Shown piece after piece: positions 2,949-48,031 of a stretch of DNA of 64,000 nucleotides. The notes beneath the pieces are model-generated. The model saw only the letters and a list, made by a program, of their open reading frames with translations. It had not been told where the DNA came from and ran no database searches. The stretch comes from a virus, in IMG/VR virus record IMGVR_UViG_3300045988_109049; one strand, 5' to 3'. Made by a program: the position numbers and the translations under genes. Position 1 is the stretch's first letter; every line of letters starts with the position of its first letter.

Positions 2949-5803
2949 TTAACTTAATAAATTTGTTGCACCACAAATACTGTCACCATTTTCATCTCTA
3001 TAATCTACATTAGGCTGAATAGACGTTACATCATTTTCTGAACCTGAGGGAATTTCAAGGGAAGAGCCATATATATCTTCATAAGCCTGTCTTAATGCAT
3101 CCTCACTAAAGGCCTCTCTGTACATTTCAGAATAAGCCAAATCCTCTTCTGTCATTTGAGGAGTTTCATAAGAAGTAACTGCTTCATCAATAACAGCATT
3201 AGGATTATAACCTTTCTTGTTCTTATCAATTACAGAAGTCATTTCACTTGCTTCCTTACCATACTCATATTCAATAAAGCTATTCTTGAATCCAAGTGGC
3301 TCAATCCTTCTATAGACGGCTACATTAGACTCTTCAACTCTATCTGCAGTTAATCTGTAATAAATATAGTTACCTTTGTTTCTTCTTGCAATGAAATCAA
3401 AGAAGTCATATACAGGACCATCAGGAGTATCTATTCTCTTCTTGATGATTTTTTTATCCCCAAAATTAGCATTTTCATCTATTACAAATGTAACTTCATC
3501 CTTAATCTCATTGTCTTCACCTATAAATGAAGTTGAGGTATCATCGGGAACTTCAGGAACAAGCTTTCTATTATCAAGGTGATTATAGATATACTGTTCA
3601 ACAAAGTTACTATAATCATCCTCAGATGTAAGGAGACTTCTCAGTGTTTCAATGTACTCTGGAACTGCATTTCTTACAGCTACAGGAGCCAAGTGAATAA
3701 ATGTGGAAGGACCAAATGCAAAGCCATTTCTGTAGAAGCTGTATCTGAATAAGTTAAGAGCAAGCTTTTGAGCTTCTGGGTTACTCATATATAATAGAGA
3801 AGTCCAGTCTCTCATATATCTTTCTCTTAGAGTGGGACTCAATTGACCAACATTCTTAAACACCACAGTGTCCACAGGATTTGTATCATTTGCCCTTATC
3901 ACTCTAAGTCTCTTAATAAACTCAAGGTCAGCTATATCCTCATTCTCTGCAACCACTTTCTTGAAGTAAGTTGGGAAATTATTGATGAAGTCCCTTCTCT
4001 TGTCAGCAGATGTAATCATCTTTGTAGGATTACCATTCTCATCTACTGAACTCCAATCAGGTTCTGCACCAAAGAAATCTGTCTTAGACATTATATAAGC
4101 AAGCAAATCATTGTGAATACTATTCATAGTCTTCACATTTAATCTACCTGTCTTTGTCATGTTTCTAAGAACATCAACTACCTCATCAAATGACTCAGTG
4201 AATTGAGGGAAATACTTGCTTAACATTCTCTCTGATTGCTTCAATCCAAGTGTGTAGAATGCCTGTAAGAAAGGCAATTTACTTGCAAGCAATTGCTCTC
4301 TTATGTTGTCAATGTCATCATTAAGAGAAATACTGTCACTGATTACACCTGCTCCTACGAGTGGAAACTTATCATTCTCCTCTATATCTTTCAAGAAGTC
4401 TTGGACCTTTTGGATTTTGAGTTTTGTATCAGCAATAGTTGGACCTGCTGCACCACCTTGAGTATCAGACCTTGTAGCTTGTACAAGTTTACCAAGACTA
4501 TCGGCAGTTCTCATGATTCTCTTAAATAGGAATCCTACAGCAACTTGCTTCTTATAGAATTCAACCTTGCTGTAATCAGAAGTCTGATTAGCACTTATGA
4601 TACCTGTCATTTCTTTTGCAATAAGAATGTTGTTCGCAAGGTCCTCAATTAAGAAATCATTGCTCTTATAATTATCATAAGTAATCTCTTCCATCATTGC
4701 AGCCTTCTTTTTGTATTCTACAAGAACTTCATCAATCACAGTGTCCTTATTTTTGCCTTCTCTACTCTCCCTAAAATAAGTCTGGGTAATATCCATAACA
4801 ATAGGTTGTGTCATAAGCAAACCTATCTCAATAGGGTTATAACCTAGTCTTGAAAGAAGCATAGAAGCATCAGCAGTGAATGTATTTTGGTTAATACCAG
4901 CCAACACAGGATCTTTCACATTATCCACAGATGCAGCCAAGAAACCTGCATTATTCTTTGATATAAACTCTTTGTCTTCATTCATAATGTTATGTAAAGA
5001 AATAAGTCTCTTCCCATTCAATATAAATGAGCCATTCTCTACATCAAGGCCTAATTCAGTATGTTGCATTAAAGCATGATTAGCATTATGATTTGCATAT
5101 ATACCTATCAGTTTTGCACCAGTCATATTCTGTTGATGAAGTTGTACTTGAGTTCTTGGAGAAATAGGGTCAAGTCTTTTCTTAGTTTTTTCAGTAAGCC
5201 TATCAAGTTCTTTTAAATCCATTGAAAGTAACTTAGTAATAATCGAGCCATCAGAAATATTTAAGTCTCTTTTTAAATCTGATTCATAGCTCGAACTAAG
5301 AATACTAATAATTCTTGCAGCTTTCTTTTGATAATCAAAACCACCTGGGTTAAGAATCTTAGAGGCTGTATCTGTATTCGTTAGAACTCCCCACATCATA
5401 TCTATCATCAAGTTGTTTCTTGCTTCAAGACTATTTTCTTGTGGAGTTTTATTAAAGTCATACTTTACTTTTCTAATCTTGTATGTATCAAGTCTGTACT
5501 TTTCCTTGTTTTCTTCAAACCATTTCTTAAACTCTACAGGTGCATTTGCAAAGTCCTCTAATAGATTTCCTGCCCTAAATAAGGTAGCTAATTCATCAAG
5601 TATTTTTTGCTCACCTTTGAAATCCTGCTTTGCTCTTCTGAAGTCAAACTTATCTACCTTGAATTCAGGAAGCATAATATACATCTTATCCACATCAAAG
5701 TCAGAACCTGACAGAGTGGTAATCTCAGCAGGAAGCATAATTGCAGAACCATTCTGTTGAGGTAAGAATCCCTTGATATACAGAGGAGCCATTGAATACT
5801 TAT
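2949..5803 (-). CDS. Giant virion-type RNA polymerase, exon 2 (C-terminal ~950 aa, carries the DxDxD metal-binding motif)
   Basis: SGSDFDVDKMY (about 5688-5702) matches the beta-prime NADFDGD-type catalytic loop. The size and position fit the crAss-like single-chain RNAP. The 5' limit is set at the inferred 3' splice site, not at the GTG at 5870 used by the ORF track. Confidence 0.65.
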
Positions 5804-6713
5804 CTTCAGTTGGTTGTTTTGTTATCTTACAGATGTTTATTCTGTAATTCTTTATGTTTCCATAAAGCACGGACTATATCTTCATCCTATAAGGATGTTG
5901 GGCACTCGTGGGTATATTATATTCTATTTTCATAGTTTCAATACCTAGTCTCTGAACCTTTTATAACCATTTAAGTTATAACTTGGCTGCTGATTGTCCC
6001 TACTTATTGAATTGTCACACACTTGCATATTCCCAGTAATAACCATATCTTTTCTGATGAGTTTTAATACCACTAATTATGTTAGCATCTTTCCTAATAT
6101 TTCCTAATTGTCTGGCAGCTTCTCTAATAGATTGGTAAGTATTTATAATATTACCATCATTATCTATTTGATTAATCTGTCTTTTATTAGGATTAGATTC
6201 TCTAAGTTTTAATCCTATTTTAACTGCTTTATTTCCATAACAGTTATTATAAGACTTAGTACACCATTCAAGATTTTCTACAGAATTATTAGTCTTATTT
6301 TCATCTTTGTGGTTTATACATTCCAAATTGTTAGGATTTGGAATAAAAGTATCAGCTACTATTCTATGTACTGCAATAGTTCTTTTCTTGTTAGTGTCAT
6401 CGTATAATTTCACTATAGGATAGCCACTACTATCAAGTACTGAGGATAAAGGTTTCAAAATGTTACCTTGCCTATAACTAAATACTTTACCACTTTTAGT
6501 TACTTTATAGCTTGGATATTCTCCAAATCTACTTTTAATATTAAATAGTTCTTCTTCCATATAATGTTTTTGTATAGATTTATATGTGCAAAGATACTAT
6601 AAATATTTGAATTATGCAAATTTTGTATCAATAATCTAACAGGATGTTCCAGCAATTCACCCAATTTATTATTCTTTAGTATTACTACTAAAGCGAGTCC
6701 CAATCTTTCGATT
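5804..6713 (-). mobile_element. Group I intron splitting the RNAP gene (boundaries +/- ~10 nt)
   Basis: Minus-strand core elements: P gaattgctggaaca (6645-6658), Q aatcagcagccaag (5982-5995), R ggttcagagacta (5946-5958), S agatatagtcc (5871-5881). These are followed by a GAAA-tetraloop hairpin (5850-5867) and a second hairpin (5827-5847). Contains an HNH ORF. Confidence 0.8.
6015..6560 (-). CDS. Intron-encoded HNH homing endonuclease
   Basis: INHKDENKTNNSVENLEWCTKSYNN is an HNH_3-type motif. The C-terminal IREAARQLG segment looks like a NUMOD/IENR-type DNA-binding repeat. The ORF lies between the P and Q elements of the intron. Confidence 0.75.
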   Translation of the reverse strand: MEEELFNIKSRFGEYPSYKVTKSGKVFSYRQGNILKPLSSVLDSSGYPIVKLYDDTNKKRTIAVHRIVADTFIPNPNNLECINHKDENKTNNSVENLEWCTKSYNNCYGNKAVKIGLKLRESNPNKRQINQIDNDGNIINTYQSIREAARQLGNIRKDANIISGIKTHQKRYGYYWEYASV

Positions 6714-9700
6714 AAACTCTATAACCAATCAACTTTCTAAGGTCTTCAGGCAACTTGTTGATGTCAAGTTCATGAGTCCCTTCCTTCATAAGAGGTTCAT
6801 AGAATTCTCTTGAATAAGCAGGCATATAACATTCGAGATATTTGATTCTCTTGTTCTCACCTTCTCCTTCAAATACCACATGAAGCTCATCAGTCAAGCC
6901 ATAATCAGATACCTGAATTAATGCTCCACCTCTAATCTTCTGCTTGGTAATTCTGCTCTTGATGATACTATTAAGAAGAGTCTGTACTCTTTGAGATTGT
7001 ACAGGATCAAATAATGGAATATTGAACTGACCATTCTCATTAAGGGTACAGGCTCTGACCATATCAATTCCATATCTCTGATTACCTCTAATCTCTTCAA
7101 GTAGTGCCTCCTCTATCTTCTTAGGGTCTTTGAATATATCATTCACATTCTTGAATGCTTGCAAGATATTCTCAGTATTGATTGCATTATACAGGTCCAG
7201 CCATTCCTGCTTGGTCATTTTCTTACCATCAACCTCAATAATAGCATCTGATGCAATATCAGCAGTAATCAACTTTCTAATCTGAGTACCTACAAGCTGC
7301 ACAGCATCAATAGCATGTTCAGGAGTTGCAGTCTGAATACCATAATCTTCATAGCTTATTTTATGTACTACATTAGGATTCTCAATACCATTAGGCATAG
7401 TAGTATTCTTCAATACCTCCTTTACTTGCCTGAAGTCACTAACCTCGTTAAGGTCAATAACACCTTGCTTCCCGACTTTAGTAGTAGATTCAAATTGAAC
7501 TACATCAATATTGTTCTCTTCCATGAATTCATTAATAGCTTTAAGCTTGCTTGATTTACTAAGTGGACCAGCTATTAACTCATGCATGGCAAGTAATAAG
7601 AATTCAGAGTTCTTATGCTGTACAGGAGTCTTAATACCAGTATGACCTTCTACACCACTCATGTTGCTAATTTGGGTATATACATAAGGTTTCTTAGTCT
7701 GCCAGATGATATTAAAGTCAGCAATGTTCCAAGTACCATTTTTGAAATTATTATATGCCTGCTCCATCTCATCTGTCCATTGGCCAGACATACCAAGTAT
7801 TGCTCTATAGGAGCTTAAACTTCTATAAGCCTGTGCATCTGCAACATTAACTGCCTTAAACTTGTTAATAATATTATCTCTATCCATCTTGGGCATTTCA
7901 CCTTTCTTAACTCTCTCATCAAGAACTGTTTCAATATCACTCAGTACTGAAGATACAACCTCATCATCCTTCAAGTAGATAGTTCTTTCCCAATCTCTAC
8001 CAATTCTTTCTCCCTTATAAGTAGCTTTGGTATTCATTCTAAGAGCTGGGGCATGAACCTCCTTATATCTCTTCTGAAAGTCCTCTACATTCTTATAGAA
8101 AGCTAAGTCGGTAGTAGTTAACTCAATAATTTGAGAAGTAGCTAATTTACTATTCCAGTAATACTCTCTTAATGCAGCTTTTGTATTATTCTTTACTATA
8201 AGGTTTTTGTTAATACTATCTGCTTCTTGTTTAGTAATATCTCCTCTTATAGACTTCTGATTTATTAAGTCTTTAATTTGTTGGAACAAATCTGTAGCAA
8301 CTCTATCATCTACTGGATTATTGTTGTTATAATCTTTCAATAACAACTCCATATCAGTAGTCCATAAAGTAGTACCAAGGATTTCTTTAGCTTTGATAAG
8401 AGACTTTGCAGTTCTTGAGTTCTGCTGTGATTGACCTGCAAAAGGTAAGTACTTATACTTTCCATTTGGTAACTCATCAAATAAACCAATTCTTGCCCAG
8501 TCTCTATATGCCTCTTCAAAGCCATTATCCATAACTTCTCTAAGAGTATCTCTAATGAATTCCTTTAACTCAGCACCACTGCCTTCCCTGCTCAATCTAC
8601 TCAATCTGTCAAGGAATGTTTCTCCATTATTATATCTAATGGAATTAAGTGCAGGTAAGAACTTAAACTCAGCTCCCCCTATACTCTTAATACTTCCATC
8701 CTTCTTCCTGGAAATATCATAGTTTGCTATAGGGGAGATGTTTGGATTATTATTCTGAAATTCCTCATCTCTTGCTCTGACAAGCATTATTCTGTCATAT
8801 TCTTGATTGACTAAATCAGTTAGTTTATCAAGGATAATATCATCATAAGTCAGCTTGTTCCCATTCTCATCATATTCAACTCCACTTACATACTTTCTGA
8901 ATCTAATGAATTCGGCAGAAGGAGAGTCTGAAAGAATAGGAACATGATACCAGGCCCACTTTACACTTGTTCTGCTGTCCTCTGGATCTCCCCAATATTC
9001 AGTAAGTAATGCTAAAGTATAGTCTAAGTCATCCCAATTAGTATAATCCACTTTATCAGAGTTCAATACTACTTTATGATTTAGGCCTCTTCTCATTTCC
9101 TCAGAGTTAACCAGTTGCTCTAACCAGTCACTTCTCCATCTCCCATCTTTAAAGAACCACTCATATTGCTTAAACTCAGTATTAATAAATTCTTCAAATC
9201 TCTTCCTATCTCCTCTTACATTCTTAAGCTGTTTAATTAACTTTCCAAGATAATTTGGGGTGACATGAGAGTAATAAGACTTATCATTCTCTCTAACACT
9301 ACTTTCAATAGCATCTTCAGTTACATTAGCCATCATATTTGCAATTGCACTATAAGCTGAACCAAATGTATTGATTAAGTCTCCTCTCTTCTCTATTCCA
9401 TCTTCTCCTGTTTCTGACTTTATTTCCCCCTTCTTGATTCCTTTGAATATAATATTCAATTGAGGTAGTAGGACCATAATAGGGTCAGTAAACTTAGCTG
9501 TATCAGAAGTTCTAATATCAGTTAGTGCATTTCTTAATATAGAGGGATTGGCATCAATACCAATCATATTCAACAGCTTTAGTATAGTTTTCCAGATCCT
9601 ATCATCCTCAAGAAGTTCTAATCTTGCTTCAGTATCCAAATTAGAGAATTTATTGTTTAGAGTTTCAACCCACTTAAGACCTTTTTCAGCATTTTCAATA

Positions 9701-11064
9701 TTTATGTCCCCATTCTTCTCATATACACTATCATTATCAAGTTGCATACCATTCTCATAGTTATCTCTCCAAGCATCAAGAAGGTAATATACACCTTCAG
9801 GCTTGTTAATAGCAATGGTTTGCATCTTGAATGTACCATCAAGCATCGTCTTTTTCTTCTGGATCCAATAGGGTATAAAATCCTTTCTAAAATCTTGATA
9901 GAACTGAGAAAATAGAGTATCATCTTTCTCAAGCAATTCTCTTACTTGAGCCACCCAGGGTTTATTCCTTTCAAGCTCCTGTATAAGAGGAATCATATCT
10001 TCAGAAGTAATCATATCTCTCAATTTATCAATAAGAGTTGCATGAACATAATCAGCATCTAAATACCTTAGATTACCCAAATCATCTTCCTCATACATTC
10101 CTTCATAGTCAAGCCTGGGTATTTCCCTAATAACTTTTCTAACTGCTTGAGATGATAATTCATGGGAACTAACTTGTCTAAAGTTAGTCATCCAGCCATC
10201 TTTAAAAGTCTCTTCCTTATTATAATCATCAGCTTGCTCATCAAGCTCACTGTATCCTTCAGGAGTATCATCATTTAAGTTAGCATCTTTAGGAGCAATA
10301 TAGTTCAAGTCAATTCTAACTCCTTCTGTCATTATGAGTAATGTGCTAGCTTCTTCTGCCAAAGGTTTAAAGTTATCAACAACTTTTCTATAAGCTTGTT
10401 CCTTATATACAGCTTTTCTTCTTGCAGCATCCAATTTTTGTTCATCAGAGAATCTTTCAGATTCATCTATAACACCCTCATCAATTAATGTCTGCTCTCT
10501 TGCATTTATTGCCCCAAGTTCAATTTGTACTCTATTCTCTTCTGTATCGTTGATATAGGATTGAAATATATCCAATACTCTATCAAATAATCCAGCAGGG
10601 GTGTATTTCTTTATGGCATCAAATCTATTAAGGGAGCTTAACTCCATCTGTAATTGTAATCTTTCTTCATCAGAAGCTGTATCCATTCTCTTATTAAGAG
10701 AATCATTCATTTCCTGTAGTGCTTTATCTACCTCATTACTAAAGAACCTTGCAATAAGACTTACTCTATCTCTTCTTGTTCTTGGATCAAAGTCTAAATC
10801 AACCTTAGCTTGTTCTTCAATAGAAGAGACCTTAGGAGCATCAAATGAAGGAGATAATGCTTCATCGAGCATCTCTACTGTATTTGCACTTCTTAGTTTA
10901 AATCTAAAATTATTAAGTTCTCTTACAGTAGGATACTCTTCAATAGATTTATTATTCTCTTTTTGCCACAAAGCTACAAGACCCTTTACAGATTCCTCTG
11001 TTTCATCTTGTAACTCCTTAGTTAGGTACCTAATCTCTTCAGTTGTTACTAAACAATTATTCAT
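6714..11064 (-). CDS. Giant virion-type RNA polymerase, exon 1 (N-terminal ~1450 aa)
   Basis: A 1450-aa ORF that ends in a stop immediately at the start of the intron sequence. It continues in frame with exon 2 after intron removal. Confidence 0.65.
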
Positions 11065-19291: not shown

Positions 19292-19609
19292 TTAATGAAC
19301 CCAGTAGGTTGGAAGAGGACCATTGTCATCAAGATATTCTCTATAGCTCTTTGGTAAGTCCTTTATTTTATAAGACTGATTAGTTCTAATATTTACTAGA
19401 ACATCTTCCCCCATAGAGGCTATAATATCACCCTTAACCATAATCTTCTCTCCATTGAATTCAAAGTCTTCTATACATAACTTATGTCTAGACACATCTG
19501 CATCCAACTTTACCCTATGGACAAAATATGCTCCAGATTTAACCATTATATCATACAGTACTTTAGCTATATCTTCTGCTATCTCTTCTGGAGCTTCGCA
19601 GTTGATTTC
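19292..19609 (-). CDS. polA: Family A DNA polymerase, exon 2 (C-terminal 105 aa)
   Basis: EINCEAPEEIAEDIAKVL continues motif C (compare Taq VHDELVLEAPKE) when joined to ...VTPYD of exon 1. Confidence 0.8.
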   Translation of the reverse strand, partial: EINCEAPEEIAEDIAKVLYDIMVKSGAYFVHRVKLDADVSRHKLCIEDFEFNGEKIMVKGDIIASMGEDVLVNIRTNQSYKIKDLPKSYREYLDDNGPLPTYWVH

Positions 19610-20473
19610 CACATATGTTACGAATATGTCGATTCCACATATTCTCTTTAGATTTCTCTAAAGGTCGGACTATATCTTATAAAAATCTCCACATATAGGC
19701 TAGTTGCCCATTGGTTAGATTTCTATCAGTGCTTTTCAGCTGCTCTTGCAGCTTACTCCATTTCTGGATAGTCTCTGAACTCCATAATTTATAAGAGTAA
19801 CAATTAATAGGATATTTAGCTAATATAGAATGAATAATATAGGCTCCCTCATATTTATTTATTCCTAAATAATATAATGGTCTGCTATGATTATTATCTA
19901 CTCTTACTTTAGCTTTTACTCCTATACTCTCAAAGAAAGGAATAAATACATTTTCTTGAATATTCAGAGAAAATTTCTGAGTATTAAGGTTGTAATATAA
20001 GTCCCTCTTATGAAGGCTCCCATCATCATAGAACCACAATGCTAAACCTAACTCATCAAGATTACTCACTACTTCTTCTATAGGGAGTTCCTTGATTAAT
20101 TTAAGTGAAAACCAAGCTCCTCCATAATAAGTATATATGGGAGTTTGGTTATAACCATTGCTGTCTACATGATTTATTTTGCCTTTACCAATTAATTGTT
20201 TTTTATACTCTAAGTATTCCTTATGCTTACAATTGGATGTATATATAGTACTACCACTATTAGTAGTAGATATGCAACCATCCCCTAATATAGCAGTAAG
20301 AAAAACCTGAGTTTGCTCTCTTGTAAAATCATAAAGCTGCTTATTGCCTATTTCTCTTAAGTTACTTAAAATCATATTTAATACTTTTACTAGTTTATTA
20401 TTACAATAATTCAGTGATTAAATCTTTAAGGGTTTCAAGCAATTAACACTGTTTTACTACAACAAAATTACTT
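19610..20473 (-). mobile_element. Group I intron in PolA motif C
   Basis: The 5' exon ends in gaT and the intron ends in G (19610). R ggagttcagagactatcc lies at about 19766-19783 and S aagatatagtcc at 19667-19678. These are followed by a GAAA hairpin, a second hairpin and cgtaacatatgtg before the splice site. Confidence 0.85.
19677..20375 (-). CDS. Intron-encoded LAGLIDADG homing endonuclease
   Basis: Two LAGLIDADG motifs: FLTAILGDGCIS and LALWFYDDGSL. The ORF 3' end runs through the R element and stops inside the S element. Confidence 0.8.
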   Translation of the reverse strand: MILSNLREIGNKQLYDFTREQTQVFLTAILGDGCISTTNSGSTIYTSNCKHKEYLEYKKQLIGKGKINHVDSNGYNQTPIYTYYGGAWFSLKLIKELPIEEVVSNLDELGLALWFYDDGSLHKRDLYYNLNTQKFSLNIQENVFIPFFESIGVKAKVRVDNNHSRPLYYLGINKYEGAYIIHSILAKYPINCYSYKLWSSETIQKWSKLQEQLKSTDRNLTNGQLAYMWRFL

Positions 20474-22438
20474 ATCGTAGGGTGTTACAGTAATTAACAC
20501 CTTGAATAATAAGTCATTACGTCTTAAGTATTCAAAAAAGTTTATCATGCTTACCTTATAACACAATGCTCCAGTATGCTGTATTCTGTAGTTGATAGAT
20601 TGCTTCTCAGAATCTACTTTCCTCTTGAAATACTCCTTAACCATCCTTACTGTATCACAGTCAGGAGAGCTAATCTTCATATCCCTATAATAATCCCAAA
20701 ATCCAGGTTCTTTAAATCTAGCTCTTACCTTAGCCATCCAGTTAAAGTCGTAGATGTAAGCCTTATACCCAACTTTAGGATTAAGGAGAATATAACCTTT
20801 CTGCATAACATCTTTTCTACAGAAGTCTTGATAAGTTTTAATACCTCTAAAACCCGACATATAAGCATTATATATCTTCTTAGCCTCTTCTATAGGTATT
20901 CCCTTATTATTAGATATAGTATTAGCATCACCTCCATAATTAATAGCAAATTCGATACCTTTAGCCTCATTCCTAAGAGAATGATACTTTTTCTTTATCT
21001 CATTTATAGGGATATCTCTAGGTATTTCTTTATAAGACATATATGCAGTCAAGCTATGTATATCTCCACTACCATGAATAAGCTCCTCTATAATTGCCTT
21101 ATCATTAGCAATATCAGCTAAAATATAAGTTTCTTGACCAGAATAATCAATACTTACCCACTTGTTACCATCCTCAGCTATAAAACAAGCTCTAGTTTCA
21201 GCATCAGCAGGCATATTAAGCATGTTTATATACTCAACCTTAGCTGACTTGTCCTTACCACCTGAGCTTATCCTTGCTGTATCCGTGCCCAATGAATTAA
21301 AGTTGGTATATAGCCTTCCAGTATCCCTATCTATCTGTTTAAGTACATTTGCCCCATAGGTACTGCACAGCTTCTTCATTTCCTTATACCTTATATATAA
21401 GGGAACAAGACTGCACTTATCTTTCTGAGGACCTAGTACCTTAGCTCCTATACTGTCCTTATCCTCATCATCTTCTTTATCCAGAGCAGTGGTATCGACT
21501 CCATATTTCTTGAATAAGGGGATAACTTGTTTAGGACTATTCCAATTGAGAGTTACCTGTGGTTCAATATTAAAACCTGAAAATAGATTACCTTGCCTAT
21601 CTATCTTAATGTATTTTGAGTCAGGCTCATGCTCTATAAGCCACTTATCCATTTCACTTTTGATACTATTAAGAACAGATTGATCATGTTCCATCTTCTT
21701 TTGCCACCTATCTCTATCTATTCTTATACCACAATAGCACATGTAAGCAATAGGAAGTATAGCCTTATTTTCATACTCCATGGCAGTAAGAAGTCCTTGC
21801 TTCTCCAATTGTTTCAGTTGTAATTCTCGTATCTTCTCAAGGTACTTTACATCATTAGCAGCATAAACTATAACATCTCCTGTAAGGCCTTTATAGATGA
21901 TTTGTCCTCTTATAGACTTATCCAGTTCTATTCCAAGGTACATTTCACCTAACTTCTTCAGATTCATATACAAGATATACTTAGCTTTCGAGCCTTTCTT
22001 GCTAGGGTCTGCTGGTATATAGTCATACCTAGAACACTGTATTTTATCCCATACTTCTGGACTTAGTACAGTAGGGTAACCCAACCACATTAATTTCTCT
22101 GCTAGAAATAAGTCATAGACATTACGAGGAACTATATGATATTTATAAAGCCACTGTAGGTCAAACTTAGCATTATGAAATAAGAAAAGCCTATCAGATT
22201 CAAGATAGTTTTCATATAAAGTAATATCTGTAGTAAGACAATCTATTACTACTTGAAAATCAAAGCACCCTAATTGCAATGACAAGAGCTTATCCTTATG
22301 ACAACTTAATCCACTAGTCTCGGTATCAACTCCTACAATTCTAAGAGGTTTAAGTAGGGATAGACTCTCGTCTACCCCTATTATTTTGTACTTCTCAGGT
22401 TCAAATAATTCTATATTTTTCGTAACTACATATATCAT
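20474..22438 (-). CDS. polA: Family A DNA polymerase with 3'-5' exonuclease domain, exon 1
   Basis: ExoI VGVDTETSGL, motif A SIDYSGQETYILA, motif B RNEAKGIEFAINYGG. The ORF stops one codon past the motif C Asp. Confidence 0.85.
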
Positions 22439-28379: not shown

Positions 28380-28954
28380 TTAAAGTCAAAACATTCTTGC
28401 GTTAGCAAATTTTGAAGCTCTTCCAATAATCCAAGAGCAATTTGGGCTTCTCTGGCAGATCTGAAAGCAGCGAAGTTTTTGTAATCCTTGATACATCCTT
28501 TTCTCAGGTTATAAACTTTCATACTAATTATATCTACCATATATATGTCAGGGCTATTACTAATATGATCTTCATAATTGGCATCTAGATCGATAGCTAT
28601 TTCCCTTAAGAACATAGTATATAGTGAAGCTGGACAAATATTAAGTAAGGTAAAAAGGAATTCCATAGAATTCTCTTCATTTAGACTGGATTTTTGGCAT
28701 ATTTTCCTAAGATAATACTCTACATCTTTTTCAGATTTAAGGGGTCCTTCTTCTAGATCTTCTCTCTCTACTATTAAACCTTTTTTAATTAGTTTACTTA
28801 TGCTATTAGAAAGTACAATAAATTCTTGAATTACAGAAAAGTAATCTCCCCTACGTACTCTTCTTATAACGTCACCCATTTTTACTTCTTCACCTGCTTT
28901 AGTGTAATACCTTTTCTTATTCATATTTTTCTGTTTAATGTCAATATTCTTCAT
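28376..28954 (-). CDS. Hypothetical protein
   Basis: ORF track. Confidence 0.4.
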   Translation of the reverse strand: MKNIDIKQKNMNKKRYYTKAGEEVKMGDVIRRVRRGDYFSVIQEFIVLSNSISKLIKKGLIVEREDLEEGPLKSEKDVEYYLRKICQKSSLNEENSMEFLFTLLNICPASLYTMFLREIAIDLDANYEDHISNSPDIYMVDIISMKVYNLRKGCIKDYKNFAAFRSAREAQIALGLLEELQNLLTQECFDFK

Positions 28955-29432
28955 ACCATTTTATGGAATACCCATAAATATCTCTTAATTTTTTATCTAT
29001 TTCATCAAATAGATAATGAGGCATCTTTGTCCCACTCCTTGCAAAGTATGCAGGATGCTCAATTTTTAAAATGTGATTAAATCTTTTATTAATATATAGA
29101 TCAAATGTTTGAGCTTGCTTACCGAATAATACATATATAATGGAACAAGAACATTCAGATAGATTCTTTAATAGTTTGGCTATGAATGGTCTCCAAACCA
29201 TGACATGAGAACCTATTTTATTCATCTCCACTGTGAGGGCAGAATTAATCATTAATATACCCTGCTTGGCCCAACTCTCTAAAGTTTGGTCAAAGATAAT
29301 ATTATTGTGGGGAATTTCAAAATCTATTACTGCTTCTTTTATCACTTGAAGAGAAGGAGATAAATTCTCTTCTAAGACTTCCTTCCTATTTCCAAATAAT
29401 ACACCAGTGGCTATTCCTTTCTGGGGATAAGG
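28941..29432 (-). CDS. ung: Uracil-DNA glycosylase (family 1-like), exon 2
   Basis: PYPQKGIATGVLF completes GQD|PY. Also present: NSALTVE..GSH, LFGKQAQ and EHPAYFARSG (compare HPSPLS). Confidence 0.8.
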   Translation of the reverse strand, partial: PYPQKGIATGVLFGNRKEVLEENLSPSLQVIKEAVIDFEIPHNNIIFDQTLESWAKQGILMINSALTVEMNKIGSHVMVWRPFIAKLLKNLSECSCSIIYVLFGKQAQTFDLYINKRFNHILKIEHPAYFARSGTKMPHYLFDEIDKKLRDIYGYSIKWYEEY

Positions 29433-30366
29433 CAATTTGTTACCCTAACAGCTCTTTATCTGTTAGTTCTATATGTTACCATATAGTTCGGACTATATCT
29501 TCATTGTTTACAATGCAGGGCACTCGTGTCAGGTTTATTATTTGAGCTATTCACCTGTTAGTCTCTGAACCTTCTACATACTTTTATGCTCTTCTGTAGC
29601 TTGGCTGCTGATTGACTCATTAAGTTGTTCCAGCAATTCACCCTGTTTATCCAGAACCCTTCTTTTACTATAAGTAATTAATTTATACTGCATAGATGGA
29701 ATAACAAAATCTTTAATCAGCTCTACAAATTTAGGAAAATCCTTAGCTTGCAGATACATACTATTATCATGCTTGCCTACAGTAAAATGTAAATCAAATT
29801 TATCTAATAATATATTAGCTAATAAAGATTGTTCTTCTAAAGTAAAAGAACAAGTAGATAAGATACATGAATTTTTAGTTACATAACCATCGTCCATATA
29901 CCATATAGCTAAACCTAAAGTATCCATATCTTTTACAAATTCTTCAAAAACTCTTTTATGACCATTAGAATCATAGTATTTTAATCTTATATTTGTAAAG
30001 ATAGGATGTAATCTAGATTTAAATCTATACCCTACTAATTCGTGTGAATATCTTTTATTATTTATATGATACTCAACTATAGGAGATACTAAATTATACT
30101 TATTTAGTATATTCCATTTATACTCAAGATATTCTTTTTGTTTTTCAGAATGTGCTATACTAAGACACATATTCTTAGTTTTACTTCCTACTGAACAAAA
30201 ACATCCATCTCCTAATAAACTTCCTATAAGAAGTTGTTTTAAGTCATTACCCATTTCTAAATCTTTATGATTCTTCATACTATCAAAATTTTTAATAGTA
30301 CAAAGATAAGGTATTTGACCTAATATTACAATACTTTAAGTAAATTATTTATAGTTACTTATTAAA
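29433..30366 (-). mobile_element. Group I intron in the UDG catalytic GQDPY motif
   Basis: The 5' exon ends in gaT (30367) and the intron ends in aaattG (29433). Q caatcagcagccaag lies at 29600-29613, R ggttcagagacta at 29559-29571 and S aagatatagtc at 29491-29501. These are followed by a GUAA hairpin, a second hairpin and ggtaacaaattg. Confidence 0.85.
29574..30278 (-). CDS. Intron-encoded LAGLIDADG homing endonuclease
   Basis: LLIGSLLGDGCF and LAIWYMDDGYV are the two LAGLIDADG motifs. Confidence 0.8.
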   Translation of the reverse strand: MKNHKDLEMGNDLKQLLIGSLLGDGCFCSVGSKTKNMCLSIAHSEKQKEYLEYKWNILNKYNLVSPIVEYHINNKRYSHELVGYRFKSRLHPIFTNIRLKYYDSNGHKRVFEEFVKDMDTLGLAIWYMDDGYVTKNSCILSTCSFTLEEQSLLANILLDKFDLHFTVGKHDNSMYLQAKDFPKFVELIKDFVIPSMQYKLITYSKRRVLDKQGELLEQLNESISSQATEEHKSM

Positions 30367-46100: not shown

Positions 46101-46661
46101 ATGGAGTTATACAAACAGAAAAGAAAACTAGTAACTGTCACTTGTGATTACTGTAGAGAGAGTTTCTCTAAACCAGAATCAGAGTATAAAAGAAATATTA
46201 AATTAGGCAGACATAACTTTTGTTCAAGGTCTTGTTGCGGTAAATACATTGCATCTCTCAACAAGCCTCTTACTCAAGCTCAAATAGGGTCTAGAAACTC
46301 TATAAGAAACTATAGTAGTAATAGAAATGATGAGTACACACCATTTAGAGAAATTCTAAGAACCGTAAGAAACAGGTGTAAAGAATTTAATCTAGATTTA
46401 CCTTATCTTGTGGAACTTTGGAACTCACAAAATGGTATTTGTCCTTATACAAGACTTAAACTTGTTTTACCTACTTGGAATACTAATCCTGACATAAGAT
46501 ATAGAGCTTCACTTGACAGAATAGATTCTTCTAAAGGATATATTAAAGGTAACGTGCAATTTGTTGCGACTCCTATCAATTATCTTAAAGGAACTATGTC
46601 AGATGAGACTACTAAAGCTTATCTCAGAGAAATTGCCGCTTCTATTTTCATAGAAGATTAG
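46101..46661 (+). CDS. Free-standing HNH endonuclease on the opposite strand to all neighbours
   Basis: GICPYTRLKL...ASLDRIDSSKGYIKGNVQFVATPINYLKG is an HNH core. There is an N-terminal CxxC...C..CC zinc-finger-like region. A TAacTTTG box lies about 25 nt upstream. Confidence 0.65.
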   Translation: MELYKQKRKLVTVTCDYCRESFSKPESEYKRNIKLGRHNFCSRSCCGKYIASLNKPLTQAQIGSRNSIRNYSSNRNDEYTPFREILRTVRNRCKEFNLDLPYLVELWNSQNGICPYTRLKLVLPTWNTNPDIRYRASLDRIDSSKGYIKGNVQFVATPINYLKGTMSDETTKAYLREIAASIFIED

Positions 46662-46900
46662 ACTATATCATCACCTCAATAATTTGAGGGTAGGACGCTC
46701 AAGCTGGTAATTAAGGAGACTGTACTCCTCCAGTAGTCGTTGCACTTTCATTAGGTGTACCTAATGCTTAGCTCAGGATTGGCATGATAAAAGCTAGTTC
46801 TGAGCTTTTATTTTAGCGTTCCCTGAGTTCATCCTATTTTGTAAATACTATCACTAGTAAGCGGGTCCGAACTTAAACCCTCGTCTTACTAACTTTTAAT
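46600..46900 (-). ncRNA. ORF-less group I intron-like ribozyme core without identifiable coding exons
   Basis: Minus-strand elements: P gaactcaggg (46821-46830), P5 hairpin (about 46788-46810), Q aatcctgagc (46771-46780), P6 hairpin (46750-46765), R caacgactac (46733-46742), S gatatagtc (46661-46669), GAAA hairpin (46639-46656). P and Q pair perfectly (CUCAGG/CCUGAG). The ends are not defined. Confidence 0.6.
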
Positions 46901-47732
46901 AAAAGAATTTCACATGTTTACCACTTTGATATGTAGTAGGTTCTCTACTGGGGTCAACCGATAGTTGACAGATCCACCACTCTATTTAATCTAATAGAGA
47001 AATCTTCATAAGGAGTTATAAGAATTAAAATTGAAGGGTCACACCCTCTGCATACACCAGGCAGCTTGCTCCTAACTAATAAACAAACTATATATAATAT
47101 TAAAGGTGTATTGAAAGTAGGTATAGCCTTATTAACTTCCTTCTTGACCCTATTATTCACCTTTCTGTTTCCAAGCAGGTGAGGCTCAGCCTACAAGTTA
47201 GGCGGCAGCTCTATAAGTGTTGCCAGTTAAAGTTTTGATGTCTTTCCATCAGTCTTTACATGTTCTCTTACCAAATAATTAGCAATCAAAACCAAATCAT
47301 GCCCCATATTATAGTGGAAGAAGTTGTTAATACTGATTTTTTTTTGCTGTATGTAACATCTTCTTCCACCTATAGTCAATCTCTTTTCATTTTTCTTACT
47401 TTCTTTCCAGATTTCATTTTCTCTGTCTTTTTCACCTGGAGTTCTTCATTACTGTAATCATTAATATTTATTCTTTTCATTTTTCTATTTCGTCTTACTG
47501 AAAAATAACTTGAATATTGTTTTCCAAATACCGGATCTTTGTTTCTCAGGCTGTTGAGTGTTCTCCATTGCAGTCTTTCTGTTATAGTTTACACTCTTCT
47601 TCCCTACTGTGATAAAGACAGTATTTGTCTTGTCATTTGAGTCTTTCCTAGATAGGGCTGTCTTCTTCCTTAGTAAATCTTCTTTTAGTTGTCATTTTCT
47701 TTAGAATTGGTTAAAAATATAAATAGTTATAG

Positions 47733-47804
47733 TGGCTCCTCCCAGATTCGAACTGGGATTAGAGGCTTAGAAGGCCACTGTTCTTTCCATTGAACTAAGG
47801 AGTC
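47733..47804 (-). tRNA. tRNA-Arg (anticodon UCU)
   Basis: Hand-folded cloverleaf. Acceptor GACUCCU/AGGAGCC has one A-C mismatch. D arm GUUC/GAAC. Anticodon loop CUUCUAA. T arm CCCAG-UUCGAAU-CUGGG. No encoded CCA. Confidence 0.7.
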
Positions 47805-47959
47805 TTTTAAAAATGATAGTCTATTCCTATCAGTCAAATAAACAAAAATCTTTATTGAATCTGAGAAAGGTATAAGTGTTTTGCTATACGTATAATTGCT
47901 ATTGAACCTATATTACTCCTATCTTTCATGGGCTTTTTGTATTATTATGATTTCCTGCG

Positions 47960-48031
47960 CACTCCTAATAGGAATCGAACCTATATCTACTCTCTAGAAG
48001 AGAATTGTTCTATACATTGAACTATAAGAGT
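47960..48031 (-). tRNA. tRNA, best fold gives anticodon UCU (Arg)
   Basis: Acceptor ACUCUUA/UAGGAGU, D arm GUUC/GAAC, anticodon stem AUUCU/AGAGU with loop CUUCUAG, T arm AUAGG-UUCGAUU-CCUAU. Confidence 0.6.

Follow-up and report, generated by a model that had tools for sequence, protein, structure and literature searches.

The PolA locus and its intron

The DNA analysed here (the window; 64,000 nucleotides of IMG/VR record IMGVR_UViG_3300045988_109049) belongs to a crAss-like (Steigviridae) phage to which the intron-containing phage cr128_1 is 91% identical. A group I intron of the IA type, 864 nt in length, occupies window positions 20473..19610 (minus strand) inside the PolA gene and contains an open reading frame (ORF) for a LAGLIDADG homing endonuclease. 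The main features of the locus are as follows:

20474..22438, minus strand: PolA exon 1, with the 3'-5' exonuclease domain, the greater part of the polymerase domain and the C-terminal end ...VTPYD
19610..20473, minus strand: group I intron, with P7.1 and P7.2 present and P2 absent
19677..20375, minus strand: LAGLIDADG homing-endonuclease ORF, 699 nt and 232 aa, with the motifs ILGDGC and FYDDGS
19292..19609, minus strand: PolA exon 2, EINCEAPEE... through the C-terminus ...LPTYWVH, based on alignment to the crAss001/IAS PolA

Exon 1 matched the Pfam families DNA_pol_A (E = 7e-44) and DNA_pol_A_exo1 (E = 3e-17). Its last codons are ...CCC UAC GAU, up to window position 20474; the intron starts with AAGUAA (20473), behind the U of the P1 U.G pair, and ends with ...AUAUGUG, of which the final letter is the omega-G at 19610; exon 2 opens with GAA AUC AAC UGC GAA GCU from 19609. 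Without splicing the PolA frame continues as AAG UAA and meets an in-frame stop at intron nt 4-6. It is a phase 0 insertion that separates the Asp codon of PolA motif C from the Glu codon. When the exons were joined in silico, the product read ...VTPYD|EINCEAPEE (...LITVTPYDEINCEAPEE), which rebuilds motif C of the intron-less PolA. Together with the alignment to the crAss001/IAS PolA, which places the insertion between the Asp and Glu codons, this bears out the intron boundaries and the motif C position that had been proposed in an earlier note on this DNA. The alignment of the spliced PolA with intron-less homologues is free of gaps over the junction, and removal of the intron restores an intact host gene. 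In crAss001 gp64 and IAS virus gp041 the junction stretch is unbroken and does not vary, and 51 further viral contigs also have it unbroken. The predicted ligated RNA junction is ...CCCUACGAU|GAAAUCAAC, and the intron-less sequence that the endonuclease would target (crAss001 PolA) is ACTCCTTATGATGAAATTAATTGTGAAGC.

The GenBank record of cr128_1, the nearest relative, lists a truncated DNA polymerase I and, after it, two hypothetical proteins, and the intron is unannotated. The reading that takes this form, with no intron and a PolA made as two polypeptides from either side of a free-standing endonuclease gene, can practically be dismissed: motif C would be cut between its two catalytic carboxylates, exon 2 lacks its own start codon at the junction, and the gap is bridged by a complete, covariation-supported ribozyme whose P1 and P10 pair and covary with the exons.

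Structure of the ribozyme

The helices and core elements were placed as follows:

20457..20480, minus strand: P1, exon CUACGAU (20480-20474) with the internal guide GUUGUAG (20463-20457)
20468-20464 with 19609-19605, minus strand: P10, guide AUUUU with exon 2 GAAAU, three covarying pairs
20451-20446, minus strand: P3 5' strand, CAGUGU, from alignment covariation and RNAalifold
20441-20436, minus strand: P4 5' strand, UGCUUG, pairing with P4' at 20343-20338
20431-20429, minus strand: P5 5' strand, CCU
20423-20417 with 20382-20376, minus strand: P5a, AUUUAAU with AUUAAAU, enclosing the P5b hairpin
20337-20326 with 19790-19779, minus strand: P6, 5' strand GCUUUAUGAUUU
19778-19768, minus strand: J6/7 and P7 5' strand (R element)
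19767-19758, minus strand: P7.1, CCA-GAAA-UGG
19753-19738, minus strand: P7.2, AGCUGC-AAGA-GCAGCU, covarying
19732-19727, minus strand: P3', GCACUG, pairing with 20451-20446
19724-19681, minus strand: P8, covarying and in the Rfam alignment
19610..19676, minus strand: non-coding 3' part of the ribozyme, with S element GAUAUAGUCC, P7 3' strand, P9, P9.1 and omega-G
19673-19668, minus strand: P7 3' strand
19663-19646, minus strand: P9, GAAA loop
19644-19622, minus strand: P9.1

A model of 12 helices was tested on 18 sequences, four of them without the ORF, with slid partners and 500 shuffles as controls. The cells were paired in 94.4% of cases versus 35-43% with slid partners; both sides had changed in 40 of the 77 pairs (compensatory changes), the covariation score was 0.455 against 0.06-0.10, and the observed values were reached in none of the 500 shuffles. 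P1 was paired in all 18 sequences, each with the U.G pair, and two of its pairs covary with the exon; the omega-G is invariant in the alignment. P3, P4, P5, P6 and P8 covary; the 6 bp of P7 are invariant. For P5a, compensatory changes were seen in the relatives L010 and L019 when the alignment was read by eye, and the helix was partly recovered by single-sequence folding. P1, P3, P4, P5, P6, P7.1, P7.2, P8 and P9 were found independently by RNAalifold, and the mini-intron folded with z = -4.7. The extra helices P7.1 and P7.2 lie between the P7 5' strand and P3', which is a trait of subgroup IA.

The R and S consensus elements, GUUCAGAGACUA and AAGAUAUAGUC, align to the Rfam Intron_gpI model (RF00028). 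In E-value mode the model scored 35.1 bits (E = 6e-7; the gathering score, an operational threshold rather than a biological criterion, is 50) and placed J6/7-P7, P3', P8, P7' and P9 at 19646..~19800, which is where the core had been put before from the letters of the sequence. The 5' half of this alignment (19880-19800) was forced and is wrong. A search of the window at the gathering threshold returned three other introns, the PolA intron not being among them; its score stays under that threshold, formally a miss, as the ~535-nt ORF body in P6 interrupts the model and the 5' half is misaligned. The ORF-less introns L061 and L064 exceeded the gathering score (50.6 and 51.3 bits), and for the ORF-less L049 and L054 there was no Rfam report at that score. 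Two other pairings were discarded. P4'/P6 directly upstream of R, where AUUAGCUAAAUAUCC resembles GCAGCCAAG, was rejected since covariation and the ORF-less relatives put P4' at 20343-20338, and a CAGUG/CACUG pairing within the 5' leader was dropped on the same two grounds.

The endonuclease ORF and its overlap with the core

The ORF product matched the Pfam family LAGLIDADG_2 (PF03161, E = 4e-11), and its initial assignment to the LAGLIDADG endonucleases stands. The best Foldseek match of its AlphaFold2 model (mean pLDDT 90.8) was I-SceI (1r7m_A, E = 8e-9, TM 0.62-0.65), and the bI3 maturase was also among the matches. I-SceI was recognised only by this fold search; sequence searches of the PDB with the single sequence and with a profile gave no real match. 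Pfam, AlphaFold2 and Foldseek together indicate an alpha-beta-beta-alpha-beta-beta-alpha repeat fold with two LAGLIDADG helices and conserved acidic residues. The product has 347 homologues; D32, G33, D117, S120 and others do not vary across 63 of them, and D118 and G119 hardly do.

About 138 of the 699 nt of the ORF are ribozyme core (114 nt at the 3' end and 24 nt at the 5' end):

20326..20349, minus strand: 5' overlap, codons 9-17, with P5' AGG, J5/4 CAA, P4' UAAGCA and the P6 5' strand GCUUUAUGAUUU
19677..19790, minus strand: 3' overlap, 114 nt, the last 38 codons, with P6', J6/7, P7, P7.1, P7.2, P3', P8 and the stop

The AUG of the ORF lies in L5, one base past the end of the P5a 3' strand. 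The P6 helix joins codons 13-16 to codons 196-199 of one gene, and the bulk of the endonuclease gene occupies the loop of P6. The R element is read in the ORF frame as UCA GAG ACU AUC CAG (SETIQ), and the stop UAA (19679-19677) is located in J8/7, directly 5' of the S element GAUAUAGUC. Sequence and Rfam alignment bear out the earlier note on the course of the ORF, which passes through R, P3' and P8 and ends where the S consensus begins. The overlap of ~100 nt given there is correct for the span from R to the stop (102 nt) but not for the total, as the P6 3' strand (19790-19779) and the P5', J5/4, P4' and P6 5' strand (20349-20326) had been missed.

Third codon positions are invariant at 62-76% in the core segments (76% in the 3' overlap) versus 21% in the ORF body, and the ORF-less relatives retain the P5'-P4'-P6 sequence of the 5' overlap. 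The peptides of the overlap (WSSETIQKWSKLQExLKS and the N-terminal leader) are largely dictated by the RNA. Two frames are in use over P5'-P4'-P6: the encoded peptide is DN(K/Q)QL in the majority of homologues, while others have N(G/R)QSAAL. Both ends of the ORF vary among the homologues: start positions differ, and the tail after SETI ranges from 16 to 60 residues, with 33, 38 or 49 the commonest; tails of 49 residues continue through the S element as QDIVR. The overlap matches the known phenomenon named "core creep" by Edgell et al. (2011), of which ends in core helices, variable extensions and a core sequence independent of the ORF were all found.

It is very improbable that the overlap is an artefact of ORF calling, that is, that the true protein starts later or ends earlier and the core is touched by non-functional read-through. 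Edgell et al. caution about predicted ORFs (PMC3073962), and residues 1-18 are predicted by AlphaFold2 to be disordered. However, past the AUG at 20375 no ATG, GTG or TTG occurs before the first LAGLIDADG helix (residue 19), and in relatives whose DNA was checked the first in-frame AUG is located at P5'/P4' or upstream of it. Among the listed homologues, those whose leader is non-standard have the P4'-encoded peptide too, except for the N-terminally truncated P0098. At the other end, no stop interrupts the frame between R and at least P3' in the 120 listed homologues, apart from early ones in a few (P0109, L066), and any stop upstream of R would fall in the conserved YSYKLW helix. The C-terminus of I-SceI may resemble YKLWSSET, a likeness that plays no part in the argument.

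The C-terminal tail was modelled by AlphaFold2 as two helices (residues 200-215 and 222-230, pLDDT about 87-95), which suggests that the RNA-dictated tail may not be a mere passenger; the confidence could itself stem from RNA-imposed conservation in the alignment. These helices would fit a protein that doubles as a maturase binding its own intron, with the RNA-encoded tail or leader recruited for the maturase role or for DNA binding, and so would the near invariance of W198, S199, S200, E201, T202, Q204, W206, K208 and Q210 in 63 homologues, the bI3 maturase among the fold matches and the LAGLIDADG maturase activity known in a Thermotoga bacterial intron (PMC3984707). We nevertheless consider such a dual role unlikely. 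ORF-less introns conserve these nucleotides to the same degree, so RNA constraint alone suffices for the conservation of the tail; moreover, the tail has only 16 residues in some members (P0109, L066) and is extended in others, and both catalytic acidic motifs are intact, as in an active nuclease.

Related introns

Members of one intron family occupy an identical D|E position in PolA genes that have diverged from each other (PYD|E, VHD|E), and guide and exon show covariation. The ORF-less relatives keep the same ribozyme core, and the ORF-less L049 and the ORF-containing L055 have an identical 183-nt 3' half. An intron-less PolA allele is 90% identical to the exons of the window, and the intron-containing cr128_1 is 91% identical. 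This presence/absence polymorphism among PolA alleles of about 90% identity lends indirect support to cleavage of the intron-less allele near the insertion site. These data demonstrate the intron's boundaries and structure, its overlap with the ORF, that the ORF was gained and lost, and that the ORF ends vary. A pattern scan with TTATGGAGYTCAGAGACTA also matched L038, L041, L042 and L044; these matches are due to chance and lie at the start of an unrelated protein-coding gene.

Splicing, homing and translation

The locus very probably holds a mobile IA-type group I intron with an I-SceI-like endonuclease gene that reaches into the core from both sides ("core creep"). The intron RNA would pair with the flanking exon codons in P1 and P10 and fold the P3-P9 core, after which it presumably self-splices to yield the message for a complete polymerase; the predicted endonuclease would cut intron-less PolA alleles and drive homing. 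A translating ribosome and a folded core would be mutually exclusive on one RNA, in which case the endonuclease would be made after splicing (from the excised intron), from unspliced precursors, or at a cost to polymerase expression. This anatomy makes it reasonable to infer that translation and folding compete, and T4 I-TevI offers an experimental precedent (PMC3073962, PMC3984707).

The same anatomy would entail no real competition if the endonuclease were made only from the excised intron or from an intron-internal transcript, with the polymerase unaffected, and we give this somewhat less than an even chance. The motif TAnnTTTG, which matches the Bacteroides -7 promoter consensus, is found in L5 of six divergent lineages (L047; L048/53/68/73; L054; L055/65; L069; L076), 20-45 nt upstream of the ORF start. 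In T4, I-TevI is expressed late from its own promoters (PMC3073962, PMC3984707). The clade of the window, however, has TAnnTTTG only in the P1/P10 guide (intron nt 4-11), where it is not conserved in L011 or L019, and this sole match was rejected as a promoter of the window's intron. By our rough estimate, ~0.7 chance matches are expected per intron because the motif has six specified bases and the DNA is AT-rich.

Returning to competition on one RNA, the overlap might be more than a relic and act as a regulatory switch in which ribosomes melt P4, P6, P7 and P3, and the core-dictated WSSETIQKWSKLQExLKS, modelled as a helix, might perhaps also have become a functional element of the enzyme; we regard this as decidedly unlikely. 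If true, endonuclease synthesis and maturation of the polymerase mRNA would be mutually exclusive during infection, and the recruited core peptide would be a protein segment with a sequence written by RNA structure.

Comparison with known introns

The T4 td intron with I-TevI is also IA-type, from a phage and in an essential gene of DNA metabolism (PMC3073962). In both introns the endonuclease ORF lies in the P6 region, its 3' end contributes to core helices, and splicing would have to be shielded from translation. I-TevI, however, is a GIY-YIG enzyme with an overlap of 20 nt (P6a/P7) at the 3' end only, whereas the PolA intron has a LAGLIDADG enzyme and an overlap of ~138 nt at both ends (P5' to P6, P6' to P8). 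The sequestering hairpin and late promoter are features of T4 td; no internal promoter or start-codon-sequestering element was established in the window's copy of the PolA intron.

The ORFs of the Synechococcus lividus LSU rDNA intron (LAGLIDADG, 81-nt overlap, P6/P7/P3/P8/P9.0/P9) and the B. thuringiensis nrdF intron (GIY-YIG, 56-nt overlap) traverse the catalytic core (P6, P7, P3, P8) as in the PolA intron, and the former shares its enzyme family (Edgell, Chalamcharla and Belfort 2011, Table 1; PMC3073962). Overlaps at both the 5' and 3' ends are possible according to the same authors. These two are bacterial chromosomal introns with one or a few sequences each, whereas the PolA intron family (347 proteins and ORF-less siblings) shows two frames over the same helices and several stops. 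The phage PolA host gene and the longer overlap set the PolA intron apart from the core-creep cases of that table.

PolA introns of the T7-like phages PhiI and W31 lie at E. coli Pol I site 881 according to PMC3428280, a site in the HDE of motif C, at or adjoining the D882|E883 used by the window's intron. Those of SPO1, SP82, Bastille and Pf-WMP3 are at site 674 and that of phiL7 at site 676 (PMC3428280). All these introns encode HNH nicking endonucleases, in contrast to the LAGLIDADG enzyme of the window, and the published phages infect Proteobacteria, Bacillus and cyanobacteria, not Bacteroides. I-SceI (PDB 1r7m, 5a0m) is, like the ORF product, a monomeric, two-motif LAGLIDADG protein of about 230 residues, but the sequence identity is ~20% and the source of I-SceI is an rRNA intron of yeast mitochondria. 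In crAss-like phages, a study that gives no RNA structures recognised group I introns by the endonuclease domains found within core genes, for the most part in the Delta and Zeta groups (MCP, PolB, primase) (Yutin et al. 2021, PMC7886860). The window's intron comes from the same phage order, but resides in PolA of a Steigviridae phage.

The PolA intron is a new, well-documented case of phenomena already published, namely core creep, PolA introns near motif C and introns of crAss-like phages, and it leaves the current understanding of group I introns unchanged. The PolA of this phage and its relatives is publicly mis-annotated as a truncated PolA and two hypothetical proteins, and the gene is correctly readable only after the intron has been recognised. 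The family constitutes a large natural data set on core creep, with hundreds of genes whose first and last codons are ribozyme helices, and it also holds siblings that lost the ORF, two frames over the same helices and several stop positions. It lets one ask whether RNA-imposed peptides stay neutral passengers or gain function, and allows testing how a phage keeps translation of the endonuclease from spoiling the splicing of an essential gene.

Splice junction and insertion site

The reading frame of PolA exon 1 (22438..20474, minus strand) ends in ...VTPYD; the codons that follow, AAG UAA, place a stop in frame at intron nt 4–6. The intron itself ends in ...AUAUGUG at 19610, after which the frame resumes as EINCEAPEE... 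and continues to 19292 (minus strand). Joining 20474 to 19609 yields LLFKVLITVTPYDEINCEAPEE, a stretch that is continuous and identical in gp64 of crAss001 and differs by one residue (I/C) in gp041 of the IAS virus; the sequence coding for PYDEINCEA was also found without interruption in 51 further viral contigs. The intron is therefore inserted between the motif C Asp and Glu codons of PolA, in phase 0. The earlier note had rebuilt motif C by joining the exons at 20474/19609, and intron-less PolA is indeed continuous across this junction. Elsewhere in exon 2 (∼19325–19475, minus strand), the C-terminus of the window PolA carries an in-frame insertion of ∼50 residues (CIEDFEFNGEKIMVKG...KSYREYLD) between DADVSRHKL and DNGPLPTYWVH, which is lacking from the PolA of crAss001 and the IAS virus in the alignment.

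Structure of the ribozyme

At the gathering score, Rfam detected three group I introns elsewhere in the window and left the PolA intron unreported. In E-value mode, Rfam Intron_gpI matched the latter with 35.1 bits (E = 6e-7) at 19646..19880. Alignment was good for GUUCAGAGACUA (R), an insertion, P3', P8, AAGAUAUAGUC (S) and P9, in agreement with the core placement (R, P3', P8, S) proposed from the sequence alone; the 5' half of the alignment was forced. A structure model was built by comparison of the family sequences, and its window coordinates were verified.

Elements of the structure model (window coordinates, minus strand)
P1: exon CUACGAU 20480-20474, guide GUUGUAG 20463-20457
P10: AUUUU 20468-20464, exon 2 GAAAU 19609-19605
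P2: absent
P3: CAGUGU 20451-20446, GCACUG 19732-19727
P4: UGCUUG 20441-20436, UAAGCA 20343-20338
P5: CCU 20431-20429, AGG 20349-20347
P5a: AUUUAAU 20423-20417, AUUAAAU 20382-20376
P6: GCUUUAUGAUUU 20337-20326, AAAUUAUGGAGU 19790-19779
P7: GACUAU within 19778-19768, AUAGUC 19673-19668
P7.1: 19767-19758, hairpin CCAGAAAUGG
P7.2: 19753-19738, hairpin AGCUGCAAGAGCAGCU
P8: 19724-19681, long hairpin
P9: 19663-19646, hairpin with GAAA loop
P9.1: 19644-19622, hairpin
Omega-G: 19610, G

Covariation was assessed in 18 sequences (14 with the ORF), each with 8 nt of exon per side; the interior of L5 was removed in all, and the ORF body was cut from the 14. The model (77 pairs in 12 helices) showed standard pairs in 94.4% of cells, compared to 35–43% when the 3' partners were slid by 1–3 columns. 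Two-sided changes were seen in 40 pairs versus 10–19 for the slid controls, the covariation score was 0.455 versus 0.06–0.10, and none of 500 shuffles matched the observed values. Compensatory changes were present in P1, P10, P3, P4, P5, P6, P7.2, P8, P9 and P9.1; P7 was invariant across the 18 sequences and P7.1 showed no compensatory changes. RNAalifold, in which the pseudoknot cannot be drawn, independently recovered P1, P3, P4, P5, P6, P7.1, P7.2, P8 and P9, and the fold of the window mini-intron (−84.6 kcal/mol, z = −4.7) agreed with the model as an independent check. Relative to the window, family intron L019 has joint changes at intron nt 32, 137 and 695 (third base of J3/4 from U to C; first P6 pair from G.U to A.C), which would fit a J3/4-P6 base triple, in one lineage only.

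Overlap of the endonuclease ORF with the core

The ORF (20375..19677, minus strand) encodes 232 residues and matches Pfam LAGLIDADG_2 (E = 4e-11). With intron position i defined as window 20474 − i, it spans 99-797.

Overlap of ORF and core (intron numbering)
5' overlap, codons 9-17: P5' 125-127, J5/4, P4' 131-136, P6 5' strand 137-148
3' overlap, last 38 codons: P6' 684-695, J6/7 and P7 696-706, P7.1, P7.2, P3' 742-747, P8 750-793
ORF stop UAA, 795-797: in J8/7, immediately 5' of GAUAUAGUC

The ORF thus reads through R and stops directly before the S element, as had been noticed. The ∼100 nt of overlap estimated at that time fits the stretch from R to the stop (102 nt); with P6' the 3' part comes to 114 nt, and with a further 24 nt at the 5' side the total is 138 nt of the 699-nt ORF.

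P6 pairs codons L-Y-D-F with codons K-L-W-S of one and the same protein, and these codons covary in relatives (L-L-S-L with K-R-W-S in L055; L-H-L with R-W-S in L048). The P3' codon is T (ACU), V (GUA) or I (AUC/AUU), tracking the opposite strand (CAGUGU, CUACGU, CGAUGU, CAAUGU). In seven lineage representatives, third codon positions were invariant in 21% of the ORF body, 62% of P5'-P6a and 76% of J6/7-P3'; the value for P8 was 12%, yet P8 covaries. Among the best 120 of 347 protein homologues, nearly all contain W(S/P)(S/P)ETIQKWSKLQExLKS, and the tail after SETI is usually 33, 38 or 49 residues long (range 16–60). In the 49-residue tails the UAA is lost and the S element is read as (Q/E)DIVR. 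CAA or GAA replaces the J8/7 stop in L069 (intron nt 878-906) and in homologues P0049, P0065, P0076, P0079 and P0080, where the reading frame, as (Q/E)DIVR, crosses the S element and P7 3' strand and enters P9; L066 and P0109 have an early stop near P3'. In most members the P5'-P4'-P6 segment encodes (D/G/E)N(K/Q)QL, and in about 20 a frame shifted by one base gives N(G/R)QSAAL; the position of the AUG varies, often within P5'. Judged from these comparisons, the nucleotides of the overlap segments are kept for the RNA, and the third-position invariance, variable tails, two frames and shifting AUG are what would be predicted under "core creep", a process by which a loop-inserted ORF grows into the core via stop-codon loss or a new start codon (PMC3073962).

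An AlphaFold2 model of the endonuclease (63 homologues) had a pLDDT of 90.8, in which residues 1–18 lack order and residues 19–30 form the first LAGLIDADG helix. The best fold matches were I-SceI (E = 8e-9, TM 0.62–0.65) and I-WcaI. The acidic residues are invariant or nearly so in both motifs, as expected for an active nuclease. The RNA-dictated tail was modelled as helices 200–215 and 222–230 (pLDDT about 87–95) and may be part of the protein fold; alternatively, these values may partly reflect conservation imposed by the RNA.

Relatives of the intron

Scanning of viral contigs, guided by protein in one round and by DNA patterns in three, recovered 31 distinct full-length introns of the same family, all inserted at PolA D|E. 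The host genes are quite divergent, with exon ends ...PYD, ...VHD and ...AHD and exon 2 starting with EIN, EVN, EIV or EYL. Four introns (L049, L054, L061, L064) lack the ORF. L049 differs from the ORF-containing L055 at one of the first 109 nt and is identical in the 183-nt 3' half; otherwise the two differ only in the middle stretch, 77 nt versus 633 nt. L049 probably arose through ORF deletion, since remnants of ORF codons persist in its P6 loop (CTAAGTAAT.ACAATTA). The ORF-less L061 (50.6 bits) and L064 (51.3 bits) reach the Rfam gathering score. Their contigs (100–155 kb) belong to very intron-dense phages, with four or five group I introns at this score within 3 kb around PolA (L061, 5307-8053; L064, 11614-13596).

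Other introns in the window

A second LAGLIDADG ORF (30278..29574, minus strand, 234 residues, ending ...NESISSQATEEHKSM*; region 29469-30278) runs across the P3-P4-P5-P4'-P6 region of a further group I intron (Rfam 85.9 bits), and its UAG stop lies just 5' of GGUUCAGAGACUA; by sequence, this phage thus has another case of ORF/core overlap. The downstream exon (29435..28941, minus strand) is uracil-DNA glycosylase-like by eye. A third intron (54.4 bits; region 5850-6560, minus strand) interrupts the gene for a giant protein (11064..6712 and 5870..2949), and an HNH-type ORF (6560..6015, minus strand) overlaps the first ∼79 nt of its Rfam match. A strong match at 46639-46908 (minus strand, 86 bits; associated range 47732-48031, minus strand) lies in a ∼1.2-kb stretch without an ORF of at least 70 residues on its own strand, downstream of two tRNA-Arg(TCT) genes; no gene is annotated in the equivalent stretch of phage cr128_1. 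The 3' end of this intron shares 23 nt with an oppositely oriented HNH-like endonuclease ORF (46101-46661, plus). The match may represent an orphan ribozyme, or the intron of an unrecognised RNA or small gene.

Proposed mobility and expression

The intron-bearing cr128_1 (uncultured crAss-like phage; Steigviridae, Asinivirinae, Mahlunavirus) is 91% identical to the window region, and across the junction the window exons share 90% identity with an intron-less allele (L104). In the cr128_1 record (GenBank MT774392 / NC_055885, 30639-33785) the PolA annotation covers exon 1 alone and ends at the intron; hypothetical proteins stand in place of the endonuclease ORF and exon 2, and there is no intron feature. 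A search of 50,697 GenBank phage records found the endonuclease encoded only in cr128_1 (two records) and in one unverified scaffold.

By analogy, the RNA would fold, guanosine would attack immediately 3' of the U in the P1 U.G pair, and exon ligation would yield the full PolA mRNA; the UAA at intron nt 4–6 would free exon 1 ribosomes ahead of core entry. The endonuclease would cleave intron-less PolA alleles of co-infecting phages, into which the intron would be copied. Among the family introns, covariation shows the guide sequence adapted to differing exon sequences.

In the window's clade the ORF AUG abuts P5a, a weak all-A-U helix, and excised intron or unspliced RNA probably serves as the mRNA for the ORF. 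In six divergent lineages (L047, L048, L053, L054, L055, L068, L069, L073, L076), L5 contains TAnnTTTG at 20–45 nt before the start of the endonuclease; the ORF-less L054 also retains this motif, which is absent from L5 in the window's clade. It resembles the Bacteroides −7 promoter box and may be a candidate internal promoter for a separate endonuclease transcript in several relatives.

Ribosomes translating the ORF would unwind first P5, P4 and P6 and then P6, P7, P3 and P8; translation and catalysis should therefore be mutually exclusive on one RNA molecule. In T4, translation of I-TevI is delayed because of such a conflict (PMC3073962, PMC3984707).

Comparison with published systems

Published PolA introns occupy E. 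coli Pol I sites 674, 676 and 881, the last within HDE of motif C in the T7-like PhiI and W31 (PMC3428280). Group I introns have been reported in crAss-like phages, mostly of other families and in other genes, without RNA structures (PMC7886860). ORF/core overlap has been described and named before; the listed cases span 9 to 81 nt, among them a Synechococcus lividus LAGLIDADG ORF that covers P6/P7/P3/P8/P9 (PMC3073962), compared to 138 nt here. The overlap in the PolA intron is longer than in the published examples found and does not represent a new principle; the intron is an unusually well-documented case of an ORF/core overlap of the kind already described.
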